Assembly: GCF_056712565.1 (NCBI RefSeq)
Contig: NZ_CM160072.1
Length of the DNA: 64,000 nt
Reading direction: 5' to 3' (one strand)
The position numbers were made by a program, and so were the translations under genes. The stretch's first letter is position 1. Each line of letters starts with the position of its first letter. This document shows, piece by piece, positions 5,942 through 63,436 of this stretch. The notes beneath the pieces were generated by a model. It did not search any database. It saw only the letters and a list, made by a program, of their open reading frames with translations, and had not been told where the DNA came from.

Positions 5942-6623
5942 TTTTCAGCTAAGTATGCTCTGTCTGGCAATTACGCTAGTTATCTATTTTCTTAACAAAC
6001 GCCTTTATCGCCGCTTTCGTAAATTGCCATTGATGCCTCTGGTGCTGACGCCTACGCTACTGGTTATGCTGCTGGTTTTTGGCAATATTTCCTGGCAAAA
6101 CTATATTGGCGAAGCGCACGGGTTACTATGGCTATTAGGTCCGGCCACCATCGCCTTTGCGGTACCAGTGTATGACAATCGGGCGATCATTAAGCGTCAC
6201 TGGATGTCGTTGACGGCAGGCGTACTGACGGCAACGGTGGTGGCAGTGACCAGCTCAGTGTGGCTGGCGCGATTGTTTACCCTGCCAGATGAGATCCAGC
6301 GTAGCCTGGCGGTGCGTTCGGTCACTACGCCATTTGCTTTGGCAGCGAGCCAGTCGCTCGGCGGACAGCCTGATCTGGTGGCGCTGTTTGTGGTGGTCAC
6401 CGGTGTGTTTGGCATGGCGATTGGCGACGTGTTGTTTTTACGTCTCTCTATTCGCGAAGGGATGGCGAAAGGTGCTGGATTCGGCGCGGCATCTCATGGT
6501 GCCGGGACTGCGCGGTCATATGAACTGGGTCAACAAGAAGGCGTAGTTGCAAGCCTGGTCATGATGCTTTCAGGTGTATTGATGGTATTGGTTTCGCCGC
6601 TGGTGGCCAGGATGATGTTCTGA
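5934..6623 (+). CDS. LrgB/CidB-family membrane protein
   Basis: 229-aa polytopic membrane ORF, overlaps the LrgA-like stop by 8 nt (translational coupling). Confidence 0.75.
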   Translation: MANFQLSMLCLAITLVIYFLNKRLYRRFRKLPLMPLVLTPTLLVMLLVFGNISWQNYIGEAHGLLWLLGPATIAFAVPVYDNRAIIKRHWMSLTAGVLTATVVAVTSSVWLARLFTLPDEIQRSLAVRSVTTPFALAASQSLGGQPDLVALFVVVTGVFGMAIGDVLFLRLSIREGMAKGAGFGAASHGAGTARSYELGQQEGVVASLVMMLSGVLMVLVSPLVARMMF

Positions 6624-8913: not shown

Positions 8914-10872
8914 TTACGATGGCATCGCGATGGCCTGCTTCTCTTCAAGCAGCTTCTCGACTACGCCAGGATCGGCAAGCGTCGAGGTATCGCCCAGGTT
9001 GCTGGTATCGCCCGCCGCAATTTTGCGCAGAATACGGCGCATAATTTTGCCGGAGCGGGTTTTAGGCAGGGAGTCGGTCCAGTGCAGCACGTCTGGCGTC
9101 GCCAGCGGGCCAATCTCTTTACGCACCCAGTTGCGGACTTCTGCGTACAGTTCTGGTGACGGTTCCTCCCCGTGATTAAGCGTGACGTAGGCGTAGATCG
9201 CCTGACCTTTAATATTGTGCGGAATACCGACCACAGCGGCTTCGGCAATTTTCGGATGCGCCACCAGCGCCGACTCAATCTCTGCCGTCCCCAGGCGGTG
9301 ACCGGAGACGTTCAGCACGTCGTCCACGCGCCCGGTGATCCAGTAATAGCCATCTTCATCGCGACGCGCGCCGTCGCCGCTGAAATACATATTTTTGAAG
9401 GTGGAGAAGTAGGTCTGCTCAAAACGTTCGTGATCGCCAAACAGAGTACGCGCCTGACCCGGCCAGGAGTCGGTGATCACCAGACTGCCTTCGGTGGCCC
9501 CCTCCAGCGGGTTACCTTCGTTATCGACCAGCGCTGGTTGCACGCCGAAGAACGGACGTGTTGCCGAACCGGCTTTCAGCTCGGTAGCGCCAGGCAGTGG
9601 CGTGATCATGAAACCGCCAGTTTCGGTCTGCCACCAGGTGTCGACCACCGGGCATTTCTCATTGCCGATCTTCTTCCAGTACCACTCCCACGCTTCCGGG
9701 TTAATTGGCTCGCCCACGGAACCGAGAATGCGCAGCGACGAACGGTCGGTGCCTTCGATCGCTTTATCGCCTTCCGCCATCAGCGCGCGAATCGCCGTGG
9801 GCGCGGTATAGAGAATATTGACCTGATGCTTGTCCACCACCTGCGCCATACGGGCAGGCGTCGGCCAGTTCGGTACGCCTTCAAACATCAGCGTGGTCGC
9901 GCCGCAGGCCAGCGGGCCATACAGCAAATAACTGTGTCCGGTAACCCAGCCCACATCGGCGGTGCACCAGTAGATGTCGCCCGGATGATAATCAAAGACA
10001 TATTTAAAGGTCAGCGCCGCGTACACCAGATAACCGCCGGTAGTGTGCAGCACGCCTTTTGGCTTACCGGTAGAACCGGAGGTATAGAGAATAAACAGCG
10101 GATCTTCGGCGTTCATCTCTTCCGCCTGGTGCTGATCGCTGGCTTGCTCAACCAGGTCGTGCCACCACAGGTCGCGCCCTTCCTGCCAGTCAATTTTTCC
10201 GCCAGTACGCTTCAGTACCACCACATGCTCTACGCTGGTGACGTTCGGGTTTTTCAGCGCGTCATCAACGTTTTTCTTCAGCGGAATACTACGCCCGGCA
10301 CGCACACCTTCGTCGGAAGTGATCACCAGTCGTGAACTGGAGTCGATAATGCGTCCGGCAACGGCTTCCGGCGAGAAGCCGCCGAAAATCACCGAATGTA
10401 CCGCGCCAATGCGGGCGCAGGCCAGCATCGCGACCGCGGCTTCCGGTACCATCGGCATATAAATCGCAACTACGTCACCTTTTTTAATGCCCAGTTCGAG
10501 CAGGGTATTGGCGAAGCGGCAGACGTCGCGGTGCAGCTCTTTATAGCTAATATGTTTGCTCTGGCTGGCGTCGTCGCCTTCCCAGATGATGGCGGTACGA
10601 TCGCCGTTTTCTTGCAGATGGCGGTCAAGGCAGTTTGCCGCCAGATTCAGCGTGCCGTCCTCGTACCATTTAATGGACACATTACCGGGGGCAAAGGAGG
10701 TGTTTTTCACCTTCTGGTACGGTGTGATCCAGTCGAGAATTTTTCCCTGTTCGCCCCAGAAGGTATCTGGTGCGTTAATAGATTGTTGATACATCGCCTC
10801 GTACTGCTGAGGGTTTATCAGGCAACGGTCTGCGATGTTGGCAGGAATGGTGTGTTTGTGAATTTGACTCAT
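8914..10872 (-). CDS. acs: Acetyl-CoA synthetase (AMP-forming)
   Basis: 652-aa ORF recognised along its whole length as E. coli Acs. Confidence 0.95.
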
Positions 10873-19329: not shown

Positions 19330-19374
19330 GTGTGGATGCCTGACTGAGTAATAGCCTGATGTAGCGTGATTTTT

Positions 19375-19441
19375 GTAGGTCGGATAAGGCGTTTACGCCG
19401 CATCCGACATCAATGCCTGATGCGACGTTTGCTGCGCCTAC
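19375..19441. repeat. REP element pair (GTAGGTCGGATAAGGCGTTTACGCCGCATCCGAC / GCCTGATGCGACG..)
   Basis: Canonical REP palindromes between gltP and yjcO. Confidence 0.8.
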
Positions 19442-19442
19442 C

Positions 19443-20132
19443 TTAACCGTTAGTTAATTTTTCAAACTCTTCACAACCGGTATCAAATCCTTCCATACAG
19501 CTCAGATTCAACCAGTGCAGCGCCTTTTGTTTATTCTTCTCGATAAAACCCTCTTCACCGTTTAAGAACATCATTCCCGCCCAGTATTCGGAATAACCGG
19601 TTCGGGAAATCGCGGAGCTACGCTTGAAATACCAGGTTGCTTTGTCATCGTCGGCCTTAATGCCCACGCCGTTGGCGTAAATCAAACCAAGCAGCATTTG
19701 GGCATCGACGGCAGAGTCGTTCTCCAGATCTTCCGAGGCGTTTTCTAACAGCGAAATCGCCTTTGGATAATCCGGTTTACCCGCTTGCGTATTTACCAGA
19801 ATATGCGCCAGCGTTACTTCACCTTCTTTACTGCCCGCTTGCGCTGCTTTCTCGGCAAGCACTTTTGCTTGTGGATAGTCCAGACTGACCGGATTGGTGA
19901 TTTTGATCTGCGCCAACAGCGCACAGGCATCGGCATCACCGCTGTCGGCGGCTTTCTGTGCCCAATATTCGGCTTTGCTCAAATCGCCGGAGCTAAACCA
20001 GCTGTCGGCAAGAAAATATTGTGCGCGTCGGTCTCCGGCCTCTGCTGCCTTTAAATACTGGCTGCCAGGCTCGGAGTCGTTCGCGTGGGCAAAGAATGTC
20101 AAAAACAACATCAAAGTGATAATTTTTTTCAT
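19443..20132 (-). CDS. yjcO: Sel1/TPR-repeat periplasmic protein
   Basis: 229 aa from MKKIITLMLFLTFFAHA signal peptide; repeated GxGxxxDxxxAxxWY Sel1-like units. Confidence 0.85.
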   Translation of the reverse strand: MKKIITLMLFLTFFAHANDSEPGSQYLKAAEAGDRRAQYFLADSWFSSGDLSKAEYWAQKAADSGDADACALLAQIKITNPVSLDYPQAKVLAEKAAQAGSKEGEVTLAHILVNTQAGKPDYPKAISLLENASEDLENDSAVDAQMLLGLIYANGVGIKADDDKATWYFKRSSAISRTGYSEYWAGMMFLNGEEGFIEKNKQKALHWLNLSCMEGFDTGCEEFEKLTNG

Positions 20133-20242
20133 TTTGATAATGAAGTTTGGTAGGGGAGAGACAGTATAAAGTGTTCGGGTGGACAAAAAAACAACTGTAA
20201 AAAGACCTGAAAGCAGAATGAATTAATGCAATGTCAGGTTTT

Positions 20243-20947
20243 TTAATCCATCCGATGTTCCCCCTTTTCCATGGCGTCGCGATCAAAAAATCGCTGAATT
20301 TTTCCCTCGGACATCAATGCCGCTCGATCAGACATATGCGCGATGACATCGGCATCGTGACTGACCAGCAGATATGTCATTTGGTGTTCCAGCTTAAGTT
20401 GATTCAACAAATTAAGGATTTCCGCTTGTACCGACATATCCAACGCCGAGGTGGGTTCATCCAGCAGAAGAAGTTGTGGTCGTAACAACAGGGCGCGAGC
20501 AATAACCACACGTTGCCGTTGACCACCGGAAAGCTGGTGTGGGTAGCGACGAGCGGCGTCGAAAGGCAAGCCAACCTGTTCCAGTGCAGTCTGGACGCGT
20601 TTTTCTATTTCTCTTTCGCCACGAATTTTGAGTGGTTCAGCCAGCGTTCGCCACAGAGTATGATTGGGATGCAACGAGGCATAGGGATCCTGAAACACCA
20701 TTTGCACATTGCGGCGGAGATCGCCTTGAAAACGCATTCCTGGTTTGATGGTGTGCCCAAACAGTGACACCTGACCGTGCCAGTCGCGCTGTAATCCAGC
20801 AATTACGCGCAAAATCGTGGATTTTCCGCAGCTTGATTCGCCAATTAAACTAAATGTCTCTCCGGCATTAACCGAAAAACTGGCGGCAGAAACTGCGGTT
20901 TTCTCAGCAAAAGTCACCTGTAAGTGATTAATTTCAACAATCGTCAT
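20243..20947 (-). CDS. ABC transporter ATP-binding protein (short NikE/DppF-like)
   Basis: 234-aa ORF with Walker A GESSCGKST, signature LSGGQRQR, Walker B LLLDEPTSALD. Confidence 0.85.
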   Translation of the reverse strand: MTIVEINHLQVTFAEKTAVSAASFSVNAGETFSLIGESSCGKSTILRVIAGLQRDWHGQVSLFGHTIKPGMRFQGDLRRNVQMVFQDPYASLHPNHTLWRTLAEPLKIRGEREIEKRVQTALEQVGLPFDAARRYPHQLSGGQRQRVVIARALLLRPQLLLLDEPTSALDMSVQAEILNLLNQLKLEHQMTYLLVSHDADVIAHMSDRAALMSEGKIQRFFDRDAMEKGEHRMD

Positions 20948-21770
20948 GGTATTTCTCCGGCGTCATTGCCGTCCTGTCCAGCGTCGGCAGCATCTGCCCG
21001 TAAGTTTGTGCATTTGGGCGGCAAGTCCACAGTGTGCGCGTGTAAGGATGCGTTGCTGTAGGTAGCGCAGCAGCGTGCATTTCATCCACCTTATTTCCCT
21101 GATACATCACCAGCACCCGATGGCAAAATTGGGCAACTAATGGCAGGTCGTGACTGATCAGCAACATTGCCATCTGACGTTGTTCACACTGGGTAACCAG
21201 CAGTTCCAGAATCTGATTACGCAGGCGCACATCCAGTGCTGATGTTGGCTCATCGGCAATCAATACCCGGGGATCGTTGATGAGCGCAATTGCAATCATC
21301 ACTCGCTGCCCCATGCCGCCAGAAAGTTCACGAGGATAGCTTTGCAGTACTCGCGTATTGAGGCCGACAGCCTGAATTGCGGTGTTTATTTTCTCTTCTT
21401 TCTCGCGGCGGTTCAGACGTTGATGGAGCGTAAGCGCCTCTTCCAGTTGCGCTTTTACTGTCTTTACTGGATTAAGCGCGTAACGCGGATCTTGCAATAC
21501 CATCGCGATATCGTTACCGCGCAACTGTTGCCATCCACGCGCGTTAAGGGTGAGTGCATCACGCCCCAGAATGTTAAGTGTGTCCGCGGTTACTACACCC
21601 GGTTTACGCACCAGCCCCATCAGGGCGCGGGCGGTCATGGACTTACCTGAACCCGACTCACCGACCAGCGCCAGACGTTCATTGCCTAATGTAAAACTGA
21701 CATTGTTGACGACCCGGGACTCCGGATAATCGACGCAGAGATTGTTGATACTAAGACGTGAGTCAGTCAT
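20934..21770 (-). CDS. ABC transporter ATP-binding protein (short NikD/DppD-like)
   Basis: Walker A GESGSGKS, signature LSGGMGQR, Walker B LIADEPTSALD; start taken at MTDSRLSINN, giving an ATGACTGA overlap with the upstream permease stop. Confidence 0.85.
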   Translation of the reverse strand: MTDSRLSINNLCVDYPESRVVNNVSFTLGNERLALVGESGSGKSMTARALMGLVRKPGVVTADTLNILGRDALTLNARGWQQLRGNDIAMVLQDPRYALNPVKTVKAQLEEALTLHQRLNRREKEEKINTAIQAVGLNTRVLQSYPRELSGGMGQRVMIAIALINDPRVLIADEPTSALDVRLRNQILELLVTQCEQRQMAMLLISHDLPLVAQFCHRVLVMYQGNKVDEMHAAALPTATHPYTRTLWTCRPNAQTYGQMLPTLDRTAMTPEKYHDDC

Positions 21771-22596
21771 GTTGAGGCTCCAGAACATCGCGCAAGCCAT
21801 CACCCAGCAGATTAAAGGCCAGACTGGCAATTAAGATAATTGCGCCGGGAGCGGCGGCAATCCACCATTGATCAAAAATGACCTGCATACCGTCGGCGAT
21901 CATGGCTCCCCATTCCGCCATTGGCGGGCGAGCACCAAGCCCAAGAAAACCCAGGCCAGCAGCCGCCAGAATGATACCCGCTAAATCCAGTGCCAGACGG
22001 ACAATGGCAGATGGCAGGCACAATGGTAAAATATGACCAGCCAGCAGACGCCTGCCGCGGATGCCCATCATTTCTGCGGCGGCAAGATAATCACTGTGTC
22101 GCAGACGTTGGATCTCACTCCGTGCCTGACGCGCATAAGCAGGCCAGGTGGTTAATGCCAGGGCCAGTGCGCCGTTAACCAGCCCCGGCCCCAGCATGGC
22201 AACAAAAGCAAAAGCCAGAATTAAACGCGGCATTGACATTACTACGTCAGTAAAACGCATCAGCACGCGTTCCAGCCAGCCGCCGTAGTACCCGGCTAAA
22301 ATGCCAATCAGCAGACCGACCGGGAGTGTAATGATTGTCACCAATGCCACCAGCCCCAGTGCCGGGCGGCTGCCGTAGATTAAACGTGAAAGTAGGTCTC
22401 GTCCGTAACTGTCAGTGCCGAGCCAGTGCTGACGACTCGGTGCTTGTAACCGCGCCGCCGCATCCTGCCAGTTAGGATCGTGAGGTGCCAGCCACGGCGC
22501 GAAGAGCGCAATTAGCATTAATAACAGGATAATTATCAACCCGCAAAACGCGGCGGGTGAATGGCGTAAACGGCGTAAAAAGAGAAACATCGGCAT
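21763..22596 (-). CDS. ABC transporter permease (NikC/DppC-like)
   Basis: 277-aa polytopic ORF; start overlaps the stop of the upstream permease by 1 nt. Confidence 0.85.
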   Translation of the reverse strand: MPMFLFLRRLRHSPAAFCGLIIILLLMLIALFAPWLAPHDPNWQDAAARLQAPSRQHWLGTDSYGRDLLSRLIYGSRPALGLVALVTIITLPVGLLIGILAGYYGGWLERVLMRFTDVVMSMPRLILAFAFVAMLGPGLVNGALALALTTWPAYARQARSEIQRLRHSDYLAAAEMMGIRGRRLLAGHILPLCLPSAIVRLALDLAGIILAAAGLGFLGLGARPPMAEWGAMIADGMQVIFDQWWIAAAPGAIILIASLAFNLLGDGLRDVLEPQHD

Positions 22597-23645
22597 CAGC
22601 GTAACCTCGGATCGGTCAGCCGGACCAGCAGGTCGGTTAAGTTATTTATCAACACAAAGCAGACGCCAATCAGCAGCGTTCCTCCCATGATTGCTGTGGT
22701 ATCACCCGCGAAGAGCGCTGTAGTGAGGTAGCGCCCAATACCTGGCCATGAAAAGACGGTTTCTGTCAGTACCGCGCCTTCCAGCATTGATGTATAGGCG
22801 AGGGCGATAACGGTGAGCAAGGTGCCGCGAATGTTGGGTAAAACATGACGTAGCAAAATTGTCATCTCGCTGGCCCCTTTGGCGCGCGCCAGCAGAATAT
22901 ATTCTTTATTCATTTCGCCAAGACAGGCGGAACGAGTCAGGCGCGTAATACTGGCGAGCGAGAAGTACGCCAGTAATAAAACCGGAAGTATCAAATGGTT
23001 GATTGCATTGGTAAATGCCTCGCGATCGCCAGAAAGCCACGTATCAATCAGCGCAAATCCGCTGCGGGGTTCTATGGTGAATTGATAAATATCATCCAGC
23101 CTGCCCGGCCCGGCACTCCATTGCAGTCTGGCGTAGAACAGCGCCAGCATCAGCAGACCAAGCCAAAAAACAGGGACGGAATTTCCCAGTAGAGTTAATG
23201 TTCGCACGGTGAAATCCAGCGGAGAACCGACATAACGGGCGCAAAGTACACCCGCAATGACGCCGACAACAGCACCGACAATAAGCGCCAACGTTGCCAG
23301 TTCAATGGTCGCCGGGAATACTGATAGCAAGTCCTGGAGTACCGGTTGCCCGGTGGAGCTGGCGATGCCCAGATCGCCGTGTGCCAGATTCATCAGGTAA
23401 TGCCAGAACTGGACGGCTAACGGCTGATCCAATCCTAACTGGTGGCGTACCTGATCATAGGTGGACTGGCTGGCGTGATCGCCAACGATTTGTAGTACGC
23501 GATCGACCGGTGAGAGAGCCGAAAGCGCAAAGGTAATCAGCAGCAGGCCGAGTAGCGTCAGAGCAACGGTAAACAGCCCTTGCAACAGCGCGAGCAGAGG
23601 GCGCTTGCCTCGCCATCTCGCGCGAGTGGAAAAAACGACAGACAT
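22596..23645 (-). CDS. ABC transporter permease (NikB/DppB-like)
   Basis: Polytopic ORF; start uncertain, ATG at 23645 (349 aa) preferred over the ATG at 23738 because two strong stem-loops occupy 23660-23740. Confidence 0.8.
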   Translation of the reverse strand: MSVVFSTRARWRGKRPLLALLQGLFTVALTLLGLLLITFALSALSPVDRVLQIVGDHASQSTYDQVRHQLGLDQPLAVQFWHYLMNLAHGDLGIASSTGQPVLQDLLSVFPATIELATLALIVGAVVGVIAGVLCARYVGSPLDFTVRTLTLLGNSVPVFWLGLLMLALFYARLQWSAGPGRLDDIYQFTIEPRSGFALIDTWLSGDREAFTNAINHLILPVLLLAYFSLASITRLTRSACLGEMNKEYILLARAKGASEMTILLRHVLPNIRGTLLTVIALAYTSMLEGAVLTETVFSWPGIGRYLTTALFAGDTTAIMGGTLLIGVCFVLINNLTDLLVRLTDPRLR

Positions 23646-23744
23646 GATCTTTCCATACAGTGATAAATCAGCGGCTGGCCTGCAATACAGGCCAGCCCTG
23701 GTACCGCGCCCGGTAACAGGGCTGGACGCGAGTTGCATACAGGG

Positions 23745-25313
23745 TTATTTGGTTACCTGATCAAACCAGACCATATCGGCATTCAACCCTTGTTGATACC
23801 CCTGCACATTATCACGCATGACAATTTGCGTTTTGCCTTGATCAATAAAGACATACGGGGAACTACGTTGTAGTTCTTGTTGCATTTTCTTATACAAATC
23901 AAGACGTTTAGTGCTATCAGGTTCAGCGATGGCCGCCAGCGTTTCTTTGTTCAGTTCCGGGATTTTCCAGCCGTTTAACCCGGCAACGGTGCTGGATTTG
24001 CCATCGTTATAGGCGAAAGAGCTGGCGTTGGAATGTGCGTCAAAATAATCAGGCAACCACATACGAATGGCCCCCTGATGCTGGTGGGCGCGAACGCGAG
24101 AGTAGACCTGACTCCCTGCGGCTGGCAGCAAATCAACTTTTACACCGCCCTGAGCAAAGCTGGCCTGAATTGACTGCGCGATGGTAATAAATGGCGGTTT
24201 ATTTTCGACATCAAGCGTGAAGTGCGGGTCTTTGATTCCGGCTTTAGCGAGGATCTCTTTTGCTTTGGCTGGATTAAAGGTAAACGGTGTTTCTTCCAGT
24301 GCTCCAGGAAAGCCCACGGGCAGGAAACTTTGATGGGTAAAATATTGTCCTTTTAAGAGATTTTTGGTGATGCCGTCGTAATCGACCAACCAGCGAGCGG
24401 CCTCCCAGAACGCAGGATTACTCATCAGCGGGTTATCCTTGTTACCGGTATTGAAGGCCAGGTAGTTCTGTTCGGCGGAGGCAATGCTCATCACTTTTAC
24501 GCCAGGTTTACCCTGTAATGCATCGATTTGATCGGCTCCCAGATCACGAGCCATATCAGCATCACCTTGTTGGATCAGCAGGCGACGCGTTGCCGGATCG
24601 GGAACATTTTTGATGATGACGTTTTTCAGTTTCGGGGCGCCGGTTGGTGAGCTGGCGTTGGCTTCCATCACGATGGCCTGATGCGGTTGGTAAGTACGCA
24701 TTTTAAACGCGCCGCTGCCAGCGGAATGCATCTTCAGCCATTCATTACCAAAGTCGTTATTTTTGGCGTTTGGCGCAACCAGCTTCTCGTCAACAATTGA
24801 GGCGATTGGTGTGGAGAGAATATTCAGTGCCAGCGCCGGGCTGACGTCGGCACTCCATTGCACCTGGACGGTATGGTCATCGATTTTCTTCAACTGGCTG
24901 GCGATATTTTCCGGCTGCCATCCCAGCACATTGAGAATAAACGCACCGGATTTATTCAGTGTGACAGCCCGGACATAAGAGTAAATCACATCTTCCGGGC
25001 GTACCGGATTACCAGAGGCAAATTTCGCATCGCTTTTCAGTTTTATGGTTAGCGTTTTGGCTGCGGGGTCAGCCTGCCAACTTTCCGCCAGAATCGGAGT
25101 GATTTTCGTCGGATCATTACGGTCCGGTTGTACTACGCGTTGATACAGACTTGGTACAGTCTGAATACTTGAGAGTTCATTAGCTTCTGCCGGGTCCAGA
25201 CTCACAATATCATCCAGTCCCTGGGCTACAACCAACGTATTAGGCGGTGTAGCGGCAACGGTTGTGGCGGAAATTGTGCTTAAAACCAGTAAAGGTAATA
25301 GTTTTTTAATCAT
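23745..25313 (-). CDS. Periplasmic substrate-binding protein, family 5 (peptide/nickel/opine type)
   Basis: 522-aa ORF with signal peptide MIKKLLPLLVLSTISATTVAA; size and architecture like NikA/DppA/OppA. Confidence 0.85.
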   Translation of the reverse strand: MIKKLLPLLVLSTISATTVAATPPNTLVVAQGLDDIVSLDPAEANELSSIQTVPSLYQRVVQPDRNDPTKITPILAESWQADPAAKTLTIKLKSDAKFASGNPVRPEDVIYSYVRAVTLNKSGAFILNVLGWQPENIASQLKKIDDHTVQVQWSADVSPALALNILSTPIASIVDEKLVAPNAKNNDFGNEWLKMHSAGSGAFKMRTYQPHQAIVMEANASSPTGAPKLKNVIIKNVPDPATRRLLIQQGDADMARDLGADQIDALQGKPGVKVMSIASAEQNYLAFNTGNKDNPLMSNPAFWEAARWLVDYDGITKNLLKGQYFTHQSFLPVGFPGALEETPFTFNPAKAKEILAKAGIKDPHFTLDVENKPPFITIAQSIQASFAQGGVKVDLLPAAGSQVYSRVRAHQHQGAIRMWLPDYFDAHSNASSFAYNDGKSSTVAGLNGWKIPELNKETLAAIAEPDSTKRLDLYKKMQQELQRSSPYVFIDQGKTQIVMRDNVQGYQQGLNADMVWFDQVTK

Positions 25314-25487
25314 ATGCTTCCCAATCCCTGAAATTACTTTGAGGTTATTAATATGCTATCAGACGGGGTTTCGCTGCATTAATCGCGCCAGAATATCCCG
25401 TTAATAGAACGAGTTAAACGGTCGATGATTTCTCACCTTACCGAAATTTTGTTTATCAAATGTAAAGTATTATTACGTTAGGCCGCG

Positions 25488-25515
25488 ATGAGAATTGAGT
25501 AAAGATAATTCTCAT
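25488..25515. promoter_or_regulatory. Perfect palindrome ATGAGAATT-N10-AATTCTCAT upstream of the ABC operon, candidate operator
   Basis: 9-bp perfect inverted repeat arms about 175 bp upstream of the substrate-binding protein start codon. Confidence 0.3.
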
Positions 25516-25608
25516 TTGCAATCGTGACTGGAATAGAAGAACAACCGAGAAGACGTCGCTAATAACCAGGATGGGCTGGTTTGACTGCGCAGGTATGTAT
25601 AAAAAAAT

Positions 25609-25644
25609 CCGGAAACAGAGAGTCGTTTCCGGATTGATACAAAG
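25609..25644 (-). terminator. Rho-independent terminator of fdhF
   Basis: Perfect 10-bp stem ATCCGGAAAC/GTTTCCGGAT with 8-nt loop, followed on the minus strand by a run of 7-8 U. Confidence 0.7.
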
Positions 25645-25687
25645 GCGTTGGGTAATATCGCCGCTTTTAACGTGAGTTTACGCGGTA

Positions 25688-27835
25688 TTACGCCAGTGCC
25701 GCTTCGCGCAGGCGAGTTTTCAACTTGTTGTACTCGTCAATCACGTACTGCTCGGCGGCGCGCTGATCGGCGATCGGCTCGACGCGCACGGCGCAGTATT
25801 TGTATTCCGGCGTTTTCGTAATCGGGCTTAAGTTTTCGGTCACCAGCTCGTTACAGGCACCAATCCACCACTGGTAGGTCATGTAAATCGCCCCTTTGTT
25901 CGGACGATCGCTGACCTGCGCACGGGTGATAATTTTGCCTTTACGCGAGTGCACCCAAACCAATGCCTCATCTTCAATACCCAGACGTTTGGCGTCTTCG
26001 GTATTGATTTGTGCGTAGCCAGGTTCATCAGCCAGCGCCGCCAGTGCCGCACAGTTACCGGTCATCGAACGGCAAGAGTAGTGACCAACTTCACGCACCG
26101 TTGACAGTACCATCGGGTACTCGTCGGTGAGTTTGTCGATTGGCGCTACCCAGTCGCAGGTGAAGAACTGCGCCAGACCGTTCGGGGTATCAAACTTCTC
26201 TTTAAACAGATAAGAAGTCCCCTGATCGGCATCTGAAGTATCGCGGCAAGGCCACTGAATGAAGCCCAGTTCGCCCATTTTCTCGTAAGTCGCACCGTAG
26301 AAATCCGGGCACAGATGACGCAACTCGTCCCAGATCTCCTGGGTGTTGTTGTAGTGCATCGGATAACCCATACGAGTGGCAATTTCACTGATGATTTGCC
26401 AGTCCGTTTTCAGATCCCACTTCGGCTCAACCGCCTTGAAGAAACGCTGGAAGCCACGGTCAGCCGCAGTAAACACGCCTTCATGCTCGCCCCACGACGT
26501 TGACGGTAAAATGACATCCGCCGCCGACGCGGTTTTGGTCATAAAGATGTCCTGAACGATAACCAGTTCCAGATCTTCAAAGGCTTTACGTACTGCCGAC
26601 AGTTCCGCGTCAGTTTGCAGCGGATCTTCGCCCATAATGTACGCCGCTCTCACTTCACCATGCGCCACGCGGTGCGGCAGCTCGCTGATACGATAACCGG
26701 TATGAGCAGGCAGGCTTTCCACGCCCCAGGCTTTGGCAAATTTCTCGCGGTTAGCCGGATCTTTCACGTACTGATAGCCCGGATACGTATCCGGCAGCGC
26801 GCCCATATCGCAGGCACCCTGCACGTTGTTCTGACCACGAACCGGGTTTACACCCGCATGTGGCTTACCGAGGTTACCGGTCAGCATCGCGAGGCTGGTC
26901 AGAGAACGCACGGTTTCCACGCCCTGATAGAACTGGGTTACCCCCATGCCCCACAGGATGGCGGCGCTTTCCGCCTGGGCATACATCCGCGCCGCCTGAC
27001 GAATCTCACTGGCGCTGACGCCGGTGATATCTTCAACCGACTCCGGCGTGTAGCCTTCAACGATTTTACGATACTCTTCAAAGCCTTCTGTACGGGAAGC
27101 GACGAACGCTTTGTCGTACAGATTTTCTTCAATAATGACATGGCCCATCGCATTCAACAGCGCGATGTTCGAGCCGTTTTTCAATGCAATGTGCATGTCA
27201 GCAATGCGCGCGGTTTCAATTTTACGCGGATCGCAGACGATAATTTTCGCCCCGTTACGTTTAGCGTTAATTACGTGATTCGCCACGATTGGGTGGGAAT
27301 CCGCCGGGTTATACCCGAAAACGAACACTAAATCGGTATTATCAATTTCGTTAATAGCATTGCTCATTGCGCCATTACCGACCGATTGGTGCAGACCTGC
27401 AACCGATGGGCCGTGTCAGACACGAGCGCAGCAGTCAACGTTATTGGTACCAATAACGGCGCGCGCAAATTTTTGCATTACATAGTTGGTTTCGTTACCC
27501 GTACCGCGCGAGGAGCCGGTCGTCTGGATGGCATCCGGACCGTACTTCTCTTTGATGGCGCTCAGGCGCTCGGCAACGTAATTCAGTGCCTCATCCCAGG
27601 AAACAGGTTCGAGTTTGCCGCCACGCTGGCGACGGATCATGGGGGTTTTCAGGCGCGGGGTCAGGATCTGGGTATCGTTAATGAAGTCCCAGCCATAATA
27701 ACCCTTCAGACACAGGGTACCCTGGTTGGTTTTCCCCTGCGCTGCCTCCGCCCGGACGATTTTGCCGTTATCGACGACCAGGTTGATTTTGCAACCTGAT
27801 GCGCAATAGGGGCAAACCGTGACGACTTTTTTCAT
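25688..27835 (-). CDS. fdhF: Formate dehydrogenase H, selenocysteine-containing molybdoenzyme; in-frame TGA (Sec) at 27417-27419
   Basis: The 139-aa and 559-aa ORFs are contiguous in one frame across a single TGA (..DCCARV-U-HGPSVAGLHQ..); N-terminal CPYCASGC Fe-S motif; total 715 aa. Confidence 0.9.
27370..27416 (-). other. fdhF SECIS stem-loop directing selenocysteine insertion at the TGA
   Basis: mRNA immediately 3' of the UGA (CACGGCCCAUCGGUUGCAGGUCUGCACCAAUCGGUCGG) is the hairpin-forming segment known as the fdhF SECIS. Confidence 0.6.
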
Positions 27836-52718: not shown

Positions 52719-53507
52719 TCAGGCAGCTTTCGCGTTCTCTTCGACGCGGTTAATGCTGCGGTAGAGATGGTCAAAACGTTCGTTATCAAACTGTTGGCTG
52801 CAGCCGTCGTAGAAGACGTGCCCCTGGCGCAGGGCGACGATGCGTTCGCAGTAGCGCAGGGCGTAATCCACCTGATGCAGCGTGACGACCACGGTAATGC
52901 CGTCGTTCTGGTTGATGTCGCGCAGGGTGTCCATCACGATGCGTGCCGATTCCGGGTCCAGCGAGGCGATGGGTTCGTCAGCGAGAATGACCTTCGCCTG
53001 CTGCATCAGCGCGCGGGCAATCGCCACACGCTGTTGCTGGCCGCCGGAGAGTGTGGAAACGCGTTGATGGGCAAAGTGCACCATGCCAACGCGGGTCAGC
53101 GCCTGTAACGCGCGCTGTTTCTGCTCGCGGGTGAAGTAGCTAAAACAGGTTCGCCAGAATGGCGTGCTGCCGAGCGCGCCAATCAGCACGTTCTCCAGTA
53201 CGCTCAGGCGATTCACCAGGTTGAATTGTTGAAAGATGTAGCCGGTATGGGCGCGGCTTTTACGGATATCGCGGGCCAGACGGCCTTCGCGCTGGACAGT
53301 GCGGCCCAGCAGCTCGATATGGCTACCGACAGATTTATCGCCGGTAATCAAACCGCTTAAGTGACGTAAAAGGGTGGATTTTCCGGAACCCGACGGCCCA
53401 AGCAGAGCCACCATTTCACCATGATGAATGTTCAGATCAACCGCGTGCAGCGCCTGATGCTGATTGAAGGTTTTGGCGAGCTTCTCGACACGGATAATCG
53501 TTTGCAT
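52719..53507 (-). CDS. phnC: Phosphonate ABC transporter ATP-binding protein
   Basis: 262-aa ORF, Walker [10 protein letters not shown]. Confidence 0.9.
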
Positions 53508-61796: not shown

Positions 61797-63436
61797 TCAC
61801 TCACTCTCCTGCAAGTTTGCAGAATATCATCCGCAGCCTGGTAATACTTCGTCTCAACGCCAGTCAGGCCCAATAAGGTTGAGAATAAGTTGTCTTGTGA
61901 ATAGTGTTGCGTTTGCGCCTGTTTTTGCAGGCAGTTCTGGTCAACCTGATACCGTTTTTGATAATCCTCCGATAGCCACAGCAGCATCGGCACCTGTTTT
62001 TGGCTATCCGGGGCGATGGCATAAGGCAGACCGTGCAGATAGATGCCATTTTCACCTAACGATTCACCGTGGTCAGAAAGATAAACCAGGCTGGTGGTAA
62101 ATTTATCCTGATGTTCTTTCAGCAGATTAATCGCTTTATCAACAATATAGTCGACGTAAACCAGCGTGTTGTCGTAAGTGTTCACCAGTTGCTCTTGGGT
62201 ACAGGTCTGGATCTCGTTAGTGTCGCAGGTTGGGGTAAATTTCCTGAACTGCGGCGGATAGCGGTTGTAATAGGTCGGGCCGTGGCTGCCGATAGTGTGT
62301 AATACAATGAGGCCATCGCTTTGCAGATTATTGATGTACTCTTCCAGCCCGTGGAACAGCACTTCGTCATAGCATTCGCCGTTGATGCACTGACCAGGCA
62401 GGTTCAGCGCGGTGACGTTCTGGTGAGGTACGCGATCGCAAACGCCTTTACAGCCGCCATCGTTGTCATTCCACAGCACGTTGATGCCCGCTCGCTGAAT
62501 GATATCCAGCACGCCTTCCTGGTGCTGTGCCAGCTCTTCTTTGTAGTGCTCACGCGGCATATCCGAGAACATGCACGGCACTGAGACGGCTGTTGCTGTG
62601 CCACAAGAGGCGGTATTAGGGAAATAGACCACGTTATCTTTTGCCAGGCGAGGATTGGTTTCGCGTGGATAACCATTCAGCGAGAAATTCTCTGCGCGCG
62701 ACGTTTCTCCGACGATCAAAATGGTCAGGTTTTTGCGTTTCCCATTTTGCATTAATGGGTTGCGGTGAGCATCTTCACCAATGCGTATCAGTGGCAGGTT
62801 GGCTGACCGCTGGTGAGAGTACCACGACCAGCTAGCAACAATGCTGTTGGACGGGCTTAAGGATTTCACCAGTTCTTTGTTGTTGCGAAACAGCGATGCA
62901 TAGTCTTTGTAGAACAGTGCGGCAACCAGCAGAATCAGCAGTACAGAAATCAGGATGTTGGCCCCGCGGAAAAGAACGCTGCGCAGGCGTGAGGTGGTGG
63001 GTTTGATTTTGATCCAGCAGGCAATCAGCGCAGCAAGCACGCCGCTGAATCCCAGCGTTAATAACATTTGCGGCGTCATCAACGCATAACTTTCTGCCGG
63101 AGTGGTATCAATAATATTGGCAATCATCGAGCGGTCGATGACGATGCCGTAAGTCATTATGAAATATTGTGCAGCCGCGCCAACCAGAATAAACAGGCAG
63201 GCCAGCGGTCGATTAAGCCACAAGAAAGAGCTTAGTGTCAGGACAATATTAATCACGCTGAAGGCGACGACCGGCATCGACAAGAAAACCAGTACGTTAT
63301 GCAGCGAGTCCAGCGGCAGCGCCTGCAACACCTGTTTAAAAAAGGCAATATTCAGGCAGATAGAGATATAAAAAGCGGCTAACAATAGCCAGGCGAGTAA
63401 ATTCAAAGAGGGTCTTTTTAGTAGGCGCTTCAACAT
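61793..63436 (-). CDS. eptA: Lipid A phosphoethanolamine transferase
   Basis: 547 aa from [14 protein letters not shown]; membrane N-terminal domain plus sulfatase-like periplasmic domain; overlaps basR start. Confidence 0.9.

Follow-up and report, generated by a model that had tools for sequence, protein, structure and literature searches.

We find that a perfect inverted repeat upstream of an ABC importer operon in Escherichia coli is probably part of a Fur operator lying over the operon promoter, through which Fur would occlude this promoter in an iron-dependent manner. The repeat is located in a 64,000-nucleotide stretch (the window, to which all positions refer) of a B2-type E. coli chromosome that matches E. 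coli ATCC 11775 with 100% identity. It consists of the arm ATGAGAATT (25488-25496), the spacer GAGTAAAGAT (25497-25506) and the arm AATTCTCAT (25507-25515), i.e., two 9-bp arms in perfect inverted symmetry around an N10 spacer; neither this repeat, nor the ChIP-exo peak and the invariant block described below, is assigned to a strand. This confirmed the palindrome ATGAGAATT-N10-AATTCTCAT at 25488-25515 that an earlier reading, made from the letters alone (the sequence-only reading), had described at the same coordinates. When perfect inverted repeats were counted with a minimum arm length of 9 bp and a maximum spacer of 20 nt, we observed approximately 18 distinct examples in the 64-kb window, vs approximately 5 expected, and the chance expectation for a single 374-bp spacer is approximately 0.03. 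No further copies of the palindrome are present in the 64-kb window. The inverted repeat is therefore only modestly unusual, and by itself is weak evidence, so that its significance rests on the score of a Fur matrix, on published ChIP peaks and on conservation.

The repeat occurs within the 374-bp gap that runs from the fdhF stop codon (25688, minus strand) to the ATG of the gene encoding a substrate-binding protein (25313, minus strand), 175-202 bp upstream of this ATG and downstream of the fdhF intrinsic terminator (25606-25635, minus strand), which separates fdhF from the operon promoter. The binding-protein gene (23745-25313) heads a five-gene ABC importer operon (20243-25313) which also contains two permease genes (22596-23645 and 21763-22596) and two ATPase genes (20934-21770 and 20243-20947), all located on the minus strand according to the RefSeq annotation of the identical locus. 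The operon proteins match the Nik/Dpp/Opp/Gsi/Cnt families in NCBIfam, with every match falling under the curated cut-off: the permeases score just under the cut-offs for nickel transporters (Opp2C, 279 bits vs 300; NikC, 276 vs 358), and the binding protein scores 111 bits with the NikA model, where the cut-off is 393. The nearest solved structures are distant (DppA, HbpA and NikA, with E from 1e-27 to 1e-13). The operon encodes a family-5 (peptide/nickel type) ABC importer, and not a recognised iron system.

Comparison with K-12 showed that the operon is carried on a 5.5-kb island (approximately 20194-25682) between yjcO and fdhF, which 1043 of 5426 complete E. coli genomes possess, CFT073 and other B2 strains among them. 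Homology to K-12 stops at approximately 20193 and starts again at 25683, which places the palindrome inside the island and not at its junction; since it lies 167 bp inside, we rejected the possibility that it is an insertion scar or a terminal repeat of the island. The annotation of the island contains no regulator gene, and searches with the old CFT073 locus tags, or with yjcO and fdhF together, found no publications on the operon. The island stands in place of the spacer that K-12 has between yjcO and fdhF, the fdhF terminator included, and brings a different terminator for this gene. On the two sides of the island, fdhF is split into two ORFs (25688-27367 and 27416-27835, with a gap at 27368-27415) because of its in-frame selenocysteine UGA codon, a known feature of this gene, and the sequence 3' of yjcO (19338-19436) matches three tandemly spaced repeats of the K-12 locus with 91-94% identity, which are REP/BIME-like.

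Using a 19-nt Fur matrix, we scored every position on both strands of the window. This matrix was built from the CFT073 DNA at 16 ChIP-exo peaks representing 14 canonical promoters (fepA, fes, fepD-entS, fepB, entC, fhuA, fiu, cirA, fhuE, tonB, exbB, yncE, sufA and mntH), selected from the CFT073 peaks that Gao et al. 2023 report (PMC10164565, Dataset 2); leave-one-out scoring gave these 14 canonical sites a median of approximately 15.5 bits (range 1.7-21.5). The right arm of the palindrome is included in a 19-mer, GCAAATGAGAATTATCTTT (25501-25519, minus strand; Fur box A), which scores 15.4 bits, on par with the canonical leave-one-out median, and ranks second of approximately 128,000 strand-positions in the 64-kb window. 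Approximately 0.01 hits at this level are expected in the spacer. By manual count, box A agrees with the classical Fur consensus at 12 of 19 positions, equal to tonB and fes, and its 9-nt core at the right arm, AATGAGAAT, scores 12.6 bits, i.e., in the top 0.002% of window positions. The left arm contains a weaker, extra half-site, the Fur core GATGAGAAT (25487-25495, plus strand), which scores 8.0 bits with the 9-nt core sub-matrix (top 0.08% of window positions), and no 19-mer containing this left-arm core scores above approximately 7 bits with the Fur matrix. The arm sequence ATGAGAA(T) is also present in the Fur boxes of fepB, fhuE, exbB and mntH. In addition, we identified a Fur-like box, TCAAATGTAAAGTATTATT (25456-25474, plus strand; box B), which reaches 12.1 bits (ninth-ranked in the window) and is inverted with respect to box A, with the two boxes pairing as an imperfect inverted repeat of 20 nt with 75% complementarity.

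The sequence-only reading had noted a partial resemblance of the repeat to a Fur operator, and had concluded that it does not qualify as a canonical Fur box. The resemblance stands for the right arm, which is a Fur-box core, and holds in a weaker form for the left. The second statement was too cautious where the right arm is concerned, given the score of box A at the level of the canonical median and the arm sequence shared with known Fur boxes. The N10 symmetry of the two arms, with 19 bp between the arm centres, does differ from the Fur-box dyad, and our manual analysis places the arm-to-arm distance one base away from a whole number of Fur hexamers. The highest-scoring hit of the Fur matrix in the window is located elsewhere: CAAAATGAAAAAAATTATC (20118-20136, minus strand; 17.2 bits) lies across the start codon of yjcO, and is also found in K-12. 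No ChIP peak at this hit was found in the supplement of either of the two CFT073 studies described below, and it is probably a coding-sequence coincidence.

Two published studies of strain CFT073, which differs from the window in the fdhF-operon spacer by one SNP and no indels, demonstrate that Fur occupies the operon promoter in vivo. We converted the CFT073 coordinates into window positions by subtracting 4,830,690, and verified this mapping. In the ChIP-seq data of Banerjee et al. 2020 (PMC7157518, Table S5A), c5081 has a Fur peak of height 1200 at 4856192, and this summit maps to 25502, the centre of the palindrome. In the same table, the heights at exbB, yncE, efeU and cirA are 676, 845, 1620 and 3050, respectively, with most non-canonical Fur peaks having heights of 15-100 (PMC7157518). 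Given that the study reports 349 peaks over 5.23 Mb, a summit would land at most 10 bp from any chosen position with a probability of approximately 0.001. The ChIP-exo study of Gao et al. 2023 lists an intergenic Fur peak, P190, at CFT073 4856207-4856219 (25517-25529), which begins 2 bp past the right arm, is labelled "R/S", and is assigned to TU185 (C_RS24010-C_RS24030), i.e., the ABC operon (PMC10164565, Dataset 2). At the canonical promoters, the distance of the 13-bp peak windows to the best Fur box ranges from -39 to +19 bp, so the offset of P190 from box A is normal. Four more Fur ChIP-exo peaks from the Gao dataset fall within the window, at 6034-6046, 10146-10158, 52786-52798 and 61873-61885, and belong to actP, the acs/nrfA spacer, phn and basS, respectively. 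Because Fur is bound there in vivo in two independent CFT073 datasets, the repeat is the best candidate operator for this transporter, as the sequence-only reading had proposed, and is a site through which Fur may regulate it.

Analysis of the promoter region suggests that the Fur sites overlap the elements recognized by RNA polymerase. In 13 other Enterobacteriaceae, the region upstream of the orthologous operon retains the block CTTTAC, and from it we infer a -35 hexamer TTTACT (25498-25503, minus strand), which falls in the palindrome spacer and is paired with a predicted -10 hexamer TAACGT (25475-25480, minus strand) located within a second cross-genus block, GCGGCCTAACGT. These hexamers are separated by 17 nt, and as a pair are a weak match to the sigma-70 consensus (7/12); transcription would start near 25468. 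An alternative, E. coli-specific promoter, with a -35 of TTCTCA (25489-25494) and a -10 of AATACT (25466-25471), matches slightly better (8/12), and its -35 falls inside the left arm. The operator would overlap the promoter on both readings. Relative to the putative start, box A would occupy -33 to -51 and box B about -6 to +12. The placement of the repeat in a promoter region by the sequence-only reading agrees with this geometry, in that the repeat brackets the predicted -35 element. A sigma-54 promoter reading of a GGCC...GC motif was rejected by eye, with its spacing being one off and the GC missing in E. coli.

Comparison with Escherichia albertii showed that 49 of the 374 spacer positions (13%) differ from E. 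coli, and that none of these differences occur in a 66-bp block (25457-25522) that takes in both boxes, the palindrome and the two predicted promoter hexamers. Three divergent E. coli alleles, with 4-9 spacer differences each, also contain no substitution in this block. The expected number of mismatch-free runs as long as 66 bp was calculated to be approximately 0.005, and this invariance points to purifying selection on the operator site.

Orthologues of the operon are present in Enterobacter, Raoultella, Klebsiella, Yokenella, Kosakonia and Buttiauxella, with 80-86% protein identity, and in E. albertii, with 98%. The orthologous promoters share with E. coli the CTTTAC ... GCGGCCTAACGT blocks, the Shine-Dalgarno context and the operon itself, and they differ from it in what surrounds the promoter. 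Most of those in Klebsiella, Raoultella, Enterobacter and Yokenella contain a conserved dyad, TTATGC-N7-GCATAA, and the promoters of the other genera lack a strong Fur box, whereas in E. coli and E. albertii this dyad is absent and the Fur box and palindrome are found in its stead. The dyad is centred at approximately -63 (about -72 to -54 from the putative start), an activator-like position, is degenerate in a few of the orthologous promoters, e.g., those of Kosakonia and RIT691, and has the T-N11-A look of a LysR-type box. The best match to a Fur box in the orthologous promoters of the other genera scores 11.3 bits, and is in a different position; with no Fur box above this score in these genera, Fur control, if real, would be specific to the E. 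coli/E. albertii lineage. Between the -10 block and the Shine-Dalgarno region, E. coli and E. albertii carry approximately 110 nt of 5' UTR (about 25325-25440) that is lacking in the other genera, and this extra stretch gave no Rfam match. In Raoultella, the divergent neighbour gene appears by eye to encode a GNAT-type acetyltransferase, and not a regulator.

The reading that we favour, a Fur operator over the importer promoter, would work as follows. The right arm would provide the core of a good Fur box (box A) and the left arm an additional core, weaker and oppositely oriented, with the further Fur-like box (box B) sitting over the predicted transcription start. Iron-loaded Fur dimers would occupy box A and probably spread to the neighbouring cores, in which case binding may be cooperative across the two arms, and would cover about -51 to +12. 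Such coverage would block RNA polymerase, i.e., the operon would be off when iron is plentiful, and it is from this arrangement that we infer repression of the ABC operon by Fur.

Viewed in this way, the operator is an ordinary example of a well-known kind, and two public datasets already contain the site. With the Fur boxes of E. coli iron-uptake promoters (fhuE, tonB, fepA-fes, fepB, exbB and mntH) it shares the GCAAAT-GAGAAT-T-ATC... arrangement, a comparable matrix score, a predicted overlap with the -35 region, a second box over the putative transcription start and a strong ChIP-seq occupancy, on a par with exbB, yncE and efeU. It differs from these E. coli boxes in the poor 3' third of its box (CTTT), in the extra inverted core 21 bp off, which creates the perfect N10 palindrome, in being bound in both iron conditions, and in that a Fur-dependent change in expression is unreported. 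It also differs from iron-uptake systems in the genes downstream, which encode a family-5 (peptide/nickel type) ABC importer.

Fur may alternatively bind here without regulatory consequence, which we regard as unlikely, with box A being a high-affinity silent site in AT-rich, horizontally acquired DNA and the palindrome a by-product of two Fur-like cores. The published expression data are compatible with such a site, as neither the pan-regulon of Gao et al. (PMC10164565, Dataset 4) nor tables S1-S4 of Banerjee et al. (PMC7157518), which report differential expression, contain the ABC operon, so that neither study lists it as responding to deletion of fur, and 57 operons alone, set against the 349 Fur peaks, were classed as directly regulated by the criteria of the latter study (PMC7157518). 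The ChIP-exo peak is also listed for both iron conditions: the label "R/S" denotes binding under both iron-replete and iron-starved conditions, and most canonical uptake promoters are "R" only, with fhuA also being "R/S" (PMC10164565). The absence of the operon from both Fur-responsive lists and this label of the peak mean that the published data demonstrate binding, and not regulation. Perfect 9-bp inverted repeats, at approximately 18 in the window, are likewise not rare. A silent site would, however, have to account for the 66-bp block, in which neither arm differs between E. coli and E. albertii while the spacer as a whole has diverged by 13%, and which coincides with the promoter core conserved across genera. 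Moreover, differential expression would also be missing if the operon were silent in the laboratory, with its inducer or activator absent.

It is also conceivable, at a considerably lower probability, that some other dimeric or tetrameric regulator, e.g., a NikR-like ribbon-helix-helix metal sensor or an unknown repressor, uses the N10 palindrome as its operator, which would overlap the Fur box by coincidence and result in dual control. The perfect 9+9 symmetry, the 19 bp between the arm centres and a geometry unlike that of a Fur box speak for this reading, as do the permeases that fall just below the nickel-transporter cut-offs, and widely spaced half-sites are typical of NikR-type tetramers. 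The repeat resembles the NikR operator of nikABCDE in having wide inverted half-sites with ATGA/TCAT upstream of an operon of the Nik/Dpp family of ABC transporters, and differs from it in spacing and in sequence; the binding protein, at 111 bits, is also well below the NikA cut-off of 393.

The consensus of the NikR operator is GTATGA-N16-TCATAC, that of the Zur box a GAAATGTTATANTATAACATTTC-like 23-bp palindrome, and that of the MntR operator the dyad AAACATAGC-N4-GCTATGTTT. Scanning with these consensus sequences, we rejected all three: the best NikR match overlapping the palindrome agrees at 8 of the 12 specified bases, with ATGA..TCAT spaced by 20 and not 16, and the best matches over the palindrome for Zur and MntR are 11/22 and 9/18, respectively. 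The sequence-only reading likewise held that the repeat is not a canonical Zur or NikR box. Consensus scans for CRP, FNR and ArgR found no convincing match on the palindrome. Away from the palindrome, a NikR-like sequence, CTTTGA-N16-TCAGAC (9/12), is located at 25337-25364, just upstream of the ribosome-binding site; one of its half-sites carries four substitutions in E. albertii, so this match is probably due to chance. Against a second regulator there is, in addition to these poor matches, the fact that the island contains no regulator gene and the window no second copy of the palindrome, and that both arms are already accounted for by the Fur data.

That the repeat is instead an RNA hairpin (an attenuator, processing site or stabiliser) in fdhF read-through or in a transcript started upstream is extremely improbable, since the minus-strand RNA, which does fold at -9.3 kcal/mol (z = -2.35 vs shuffled sequences), would have an AU-rich stem, a 10-nt loop and no U-tract, is located downstream of the strong fdhF terminator and upstream of the putative transcription start, and has no Rfam match at E <= 1. 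The Rfam scan covered the entire spacer and returned zero matches at this threshold, which argues that the spacer contains no riboswitch or known RNA.

A Fur operator at this position teaches nothing new about how Fur operators work. Its value is in annotation, in that a strong but undiscussed Fur ChIP peak of uropathogenic E. coli can now be tied to one 19-bp box at the promoter of an uncharacterised accessory ABC importer, a site that is kept in E. coli and E. albertii and is absent from the orthologous operons of other genera. We put forward only tentatively, as a proposal that is itself doubtful, that in the E. coli/E. albertii lineage an ancestral importer with a LysR-type box was rewired to control by Fur and iron. 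If so, the lineage would have lost this activator box and acquired the palindrome, as a Fur box plus additional inverted core, together with a longer 5' UTR, and the transporter would be expected to import an iron- or metal-bearing substrate, e.g., a metallophore or haem. If control by Fur is real, it would be a hint that this transporter has a role in the acquisition of iron or another metal in extraintestinal pathogenic E. coli.
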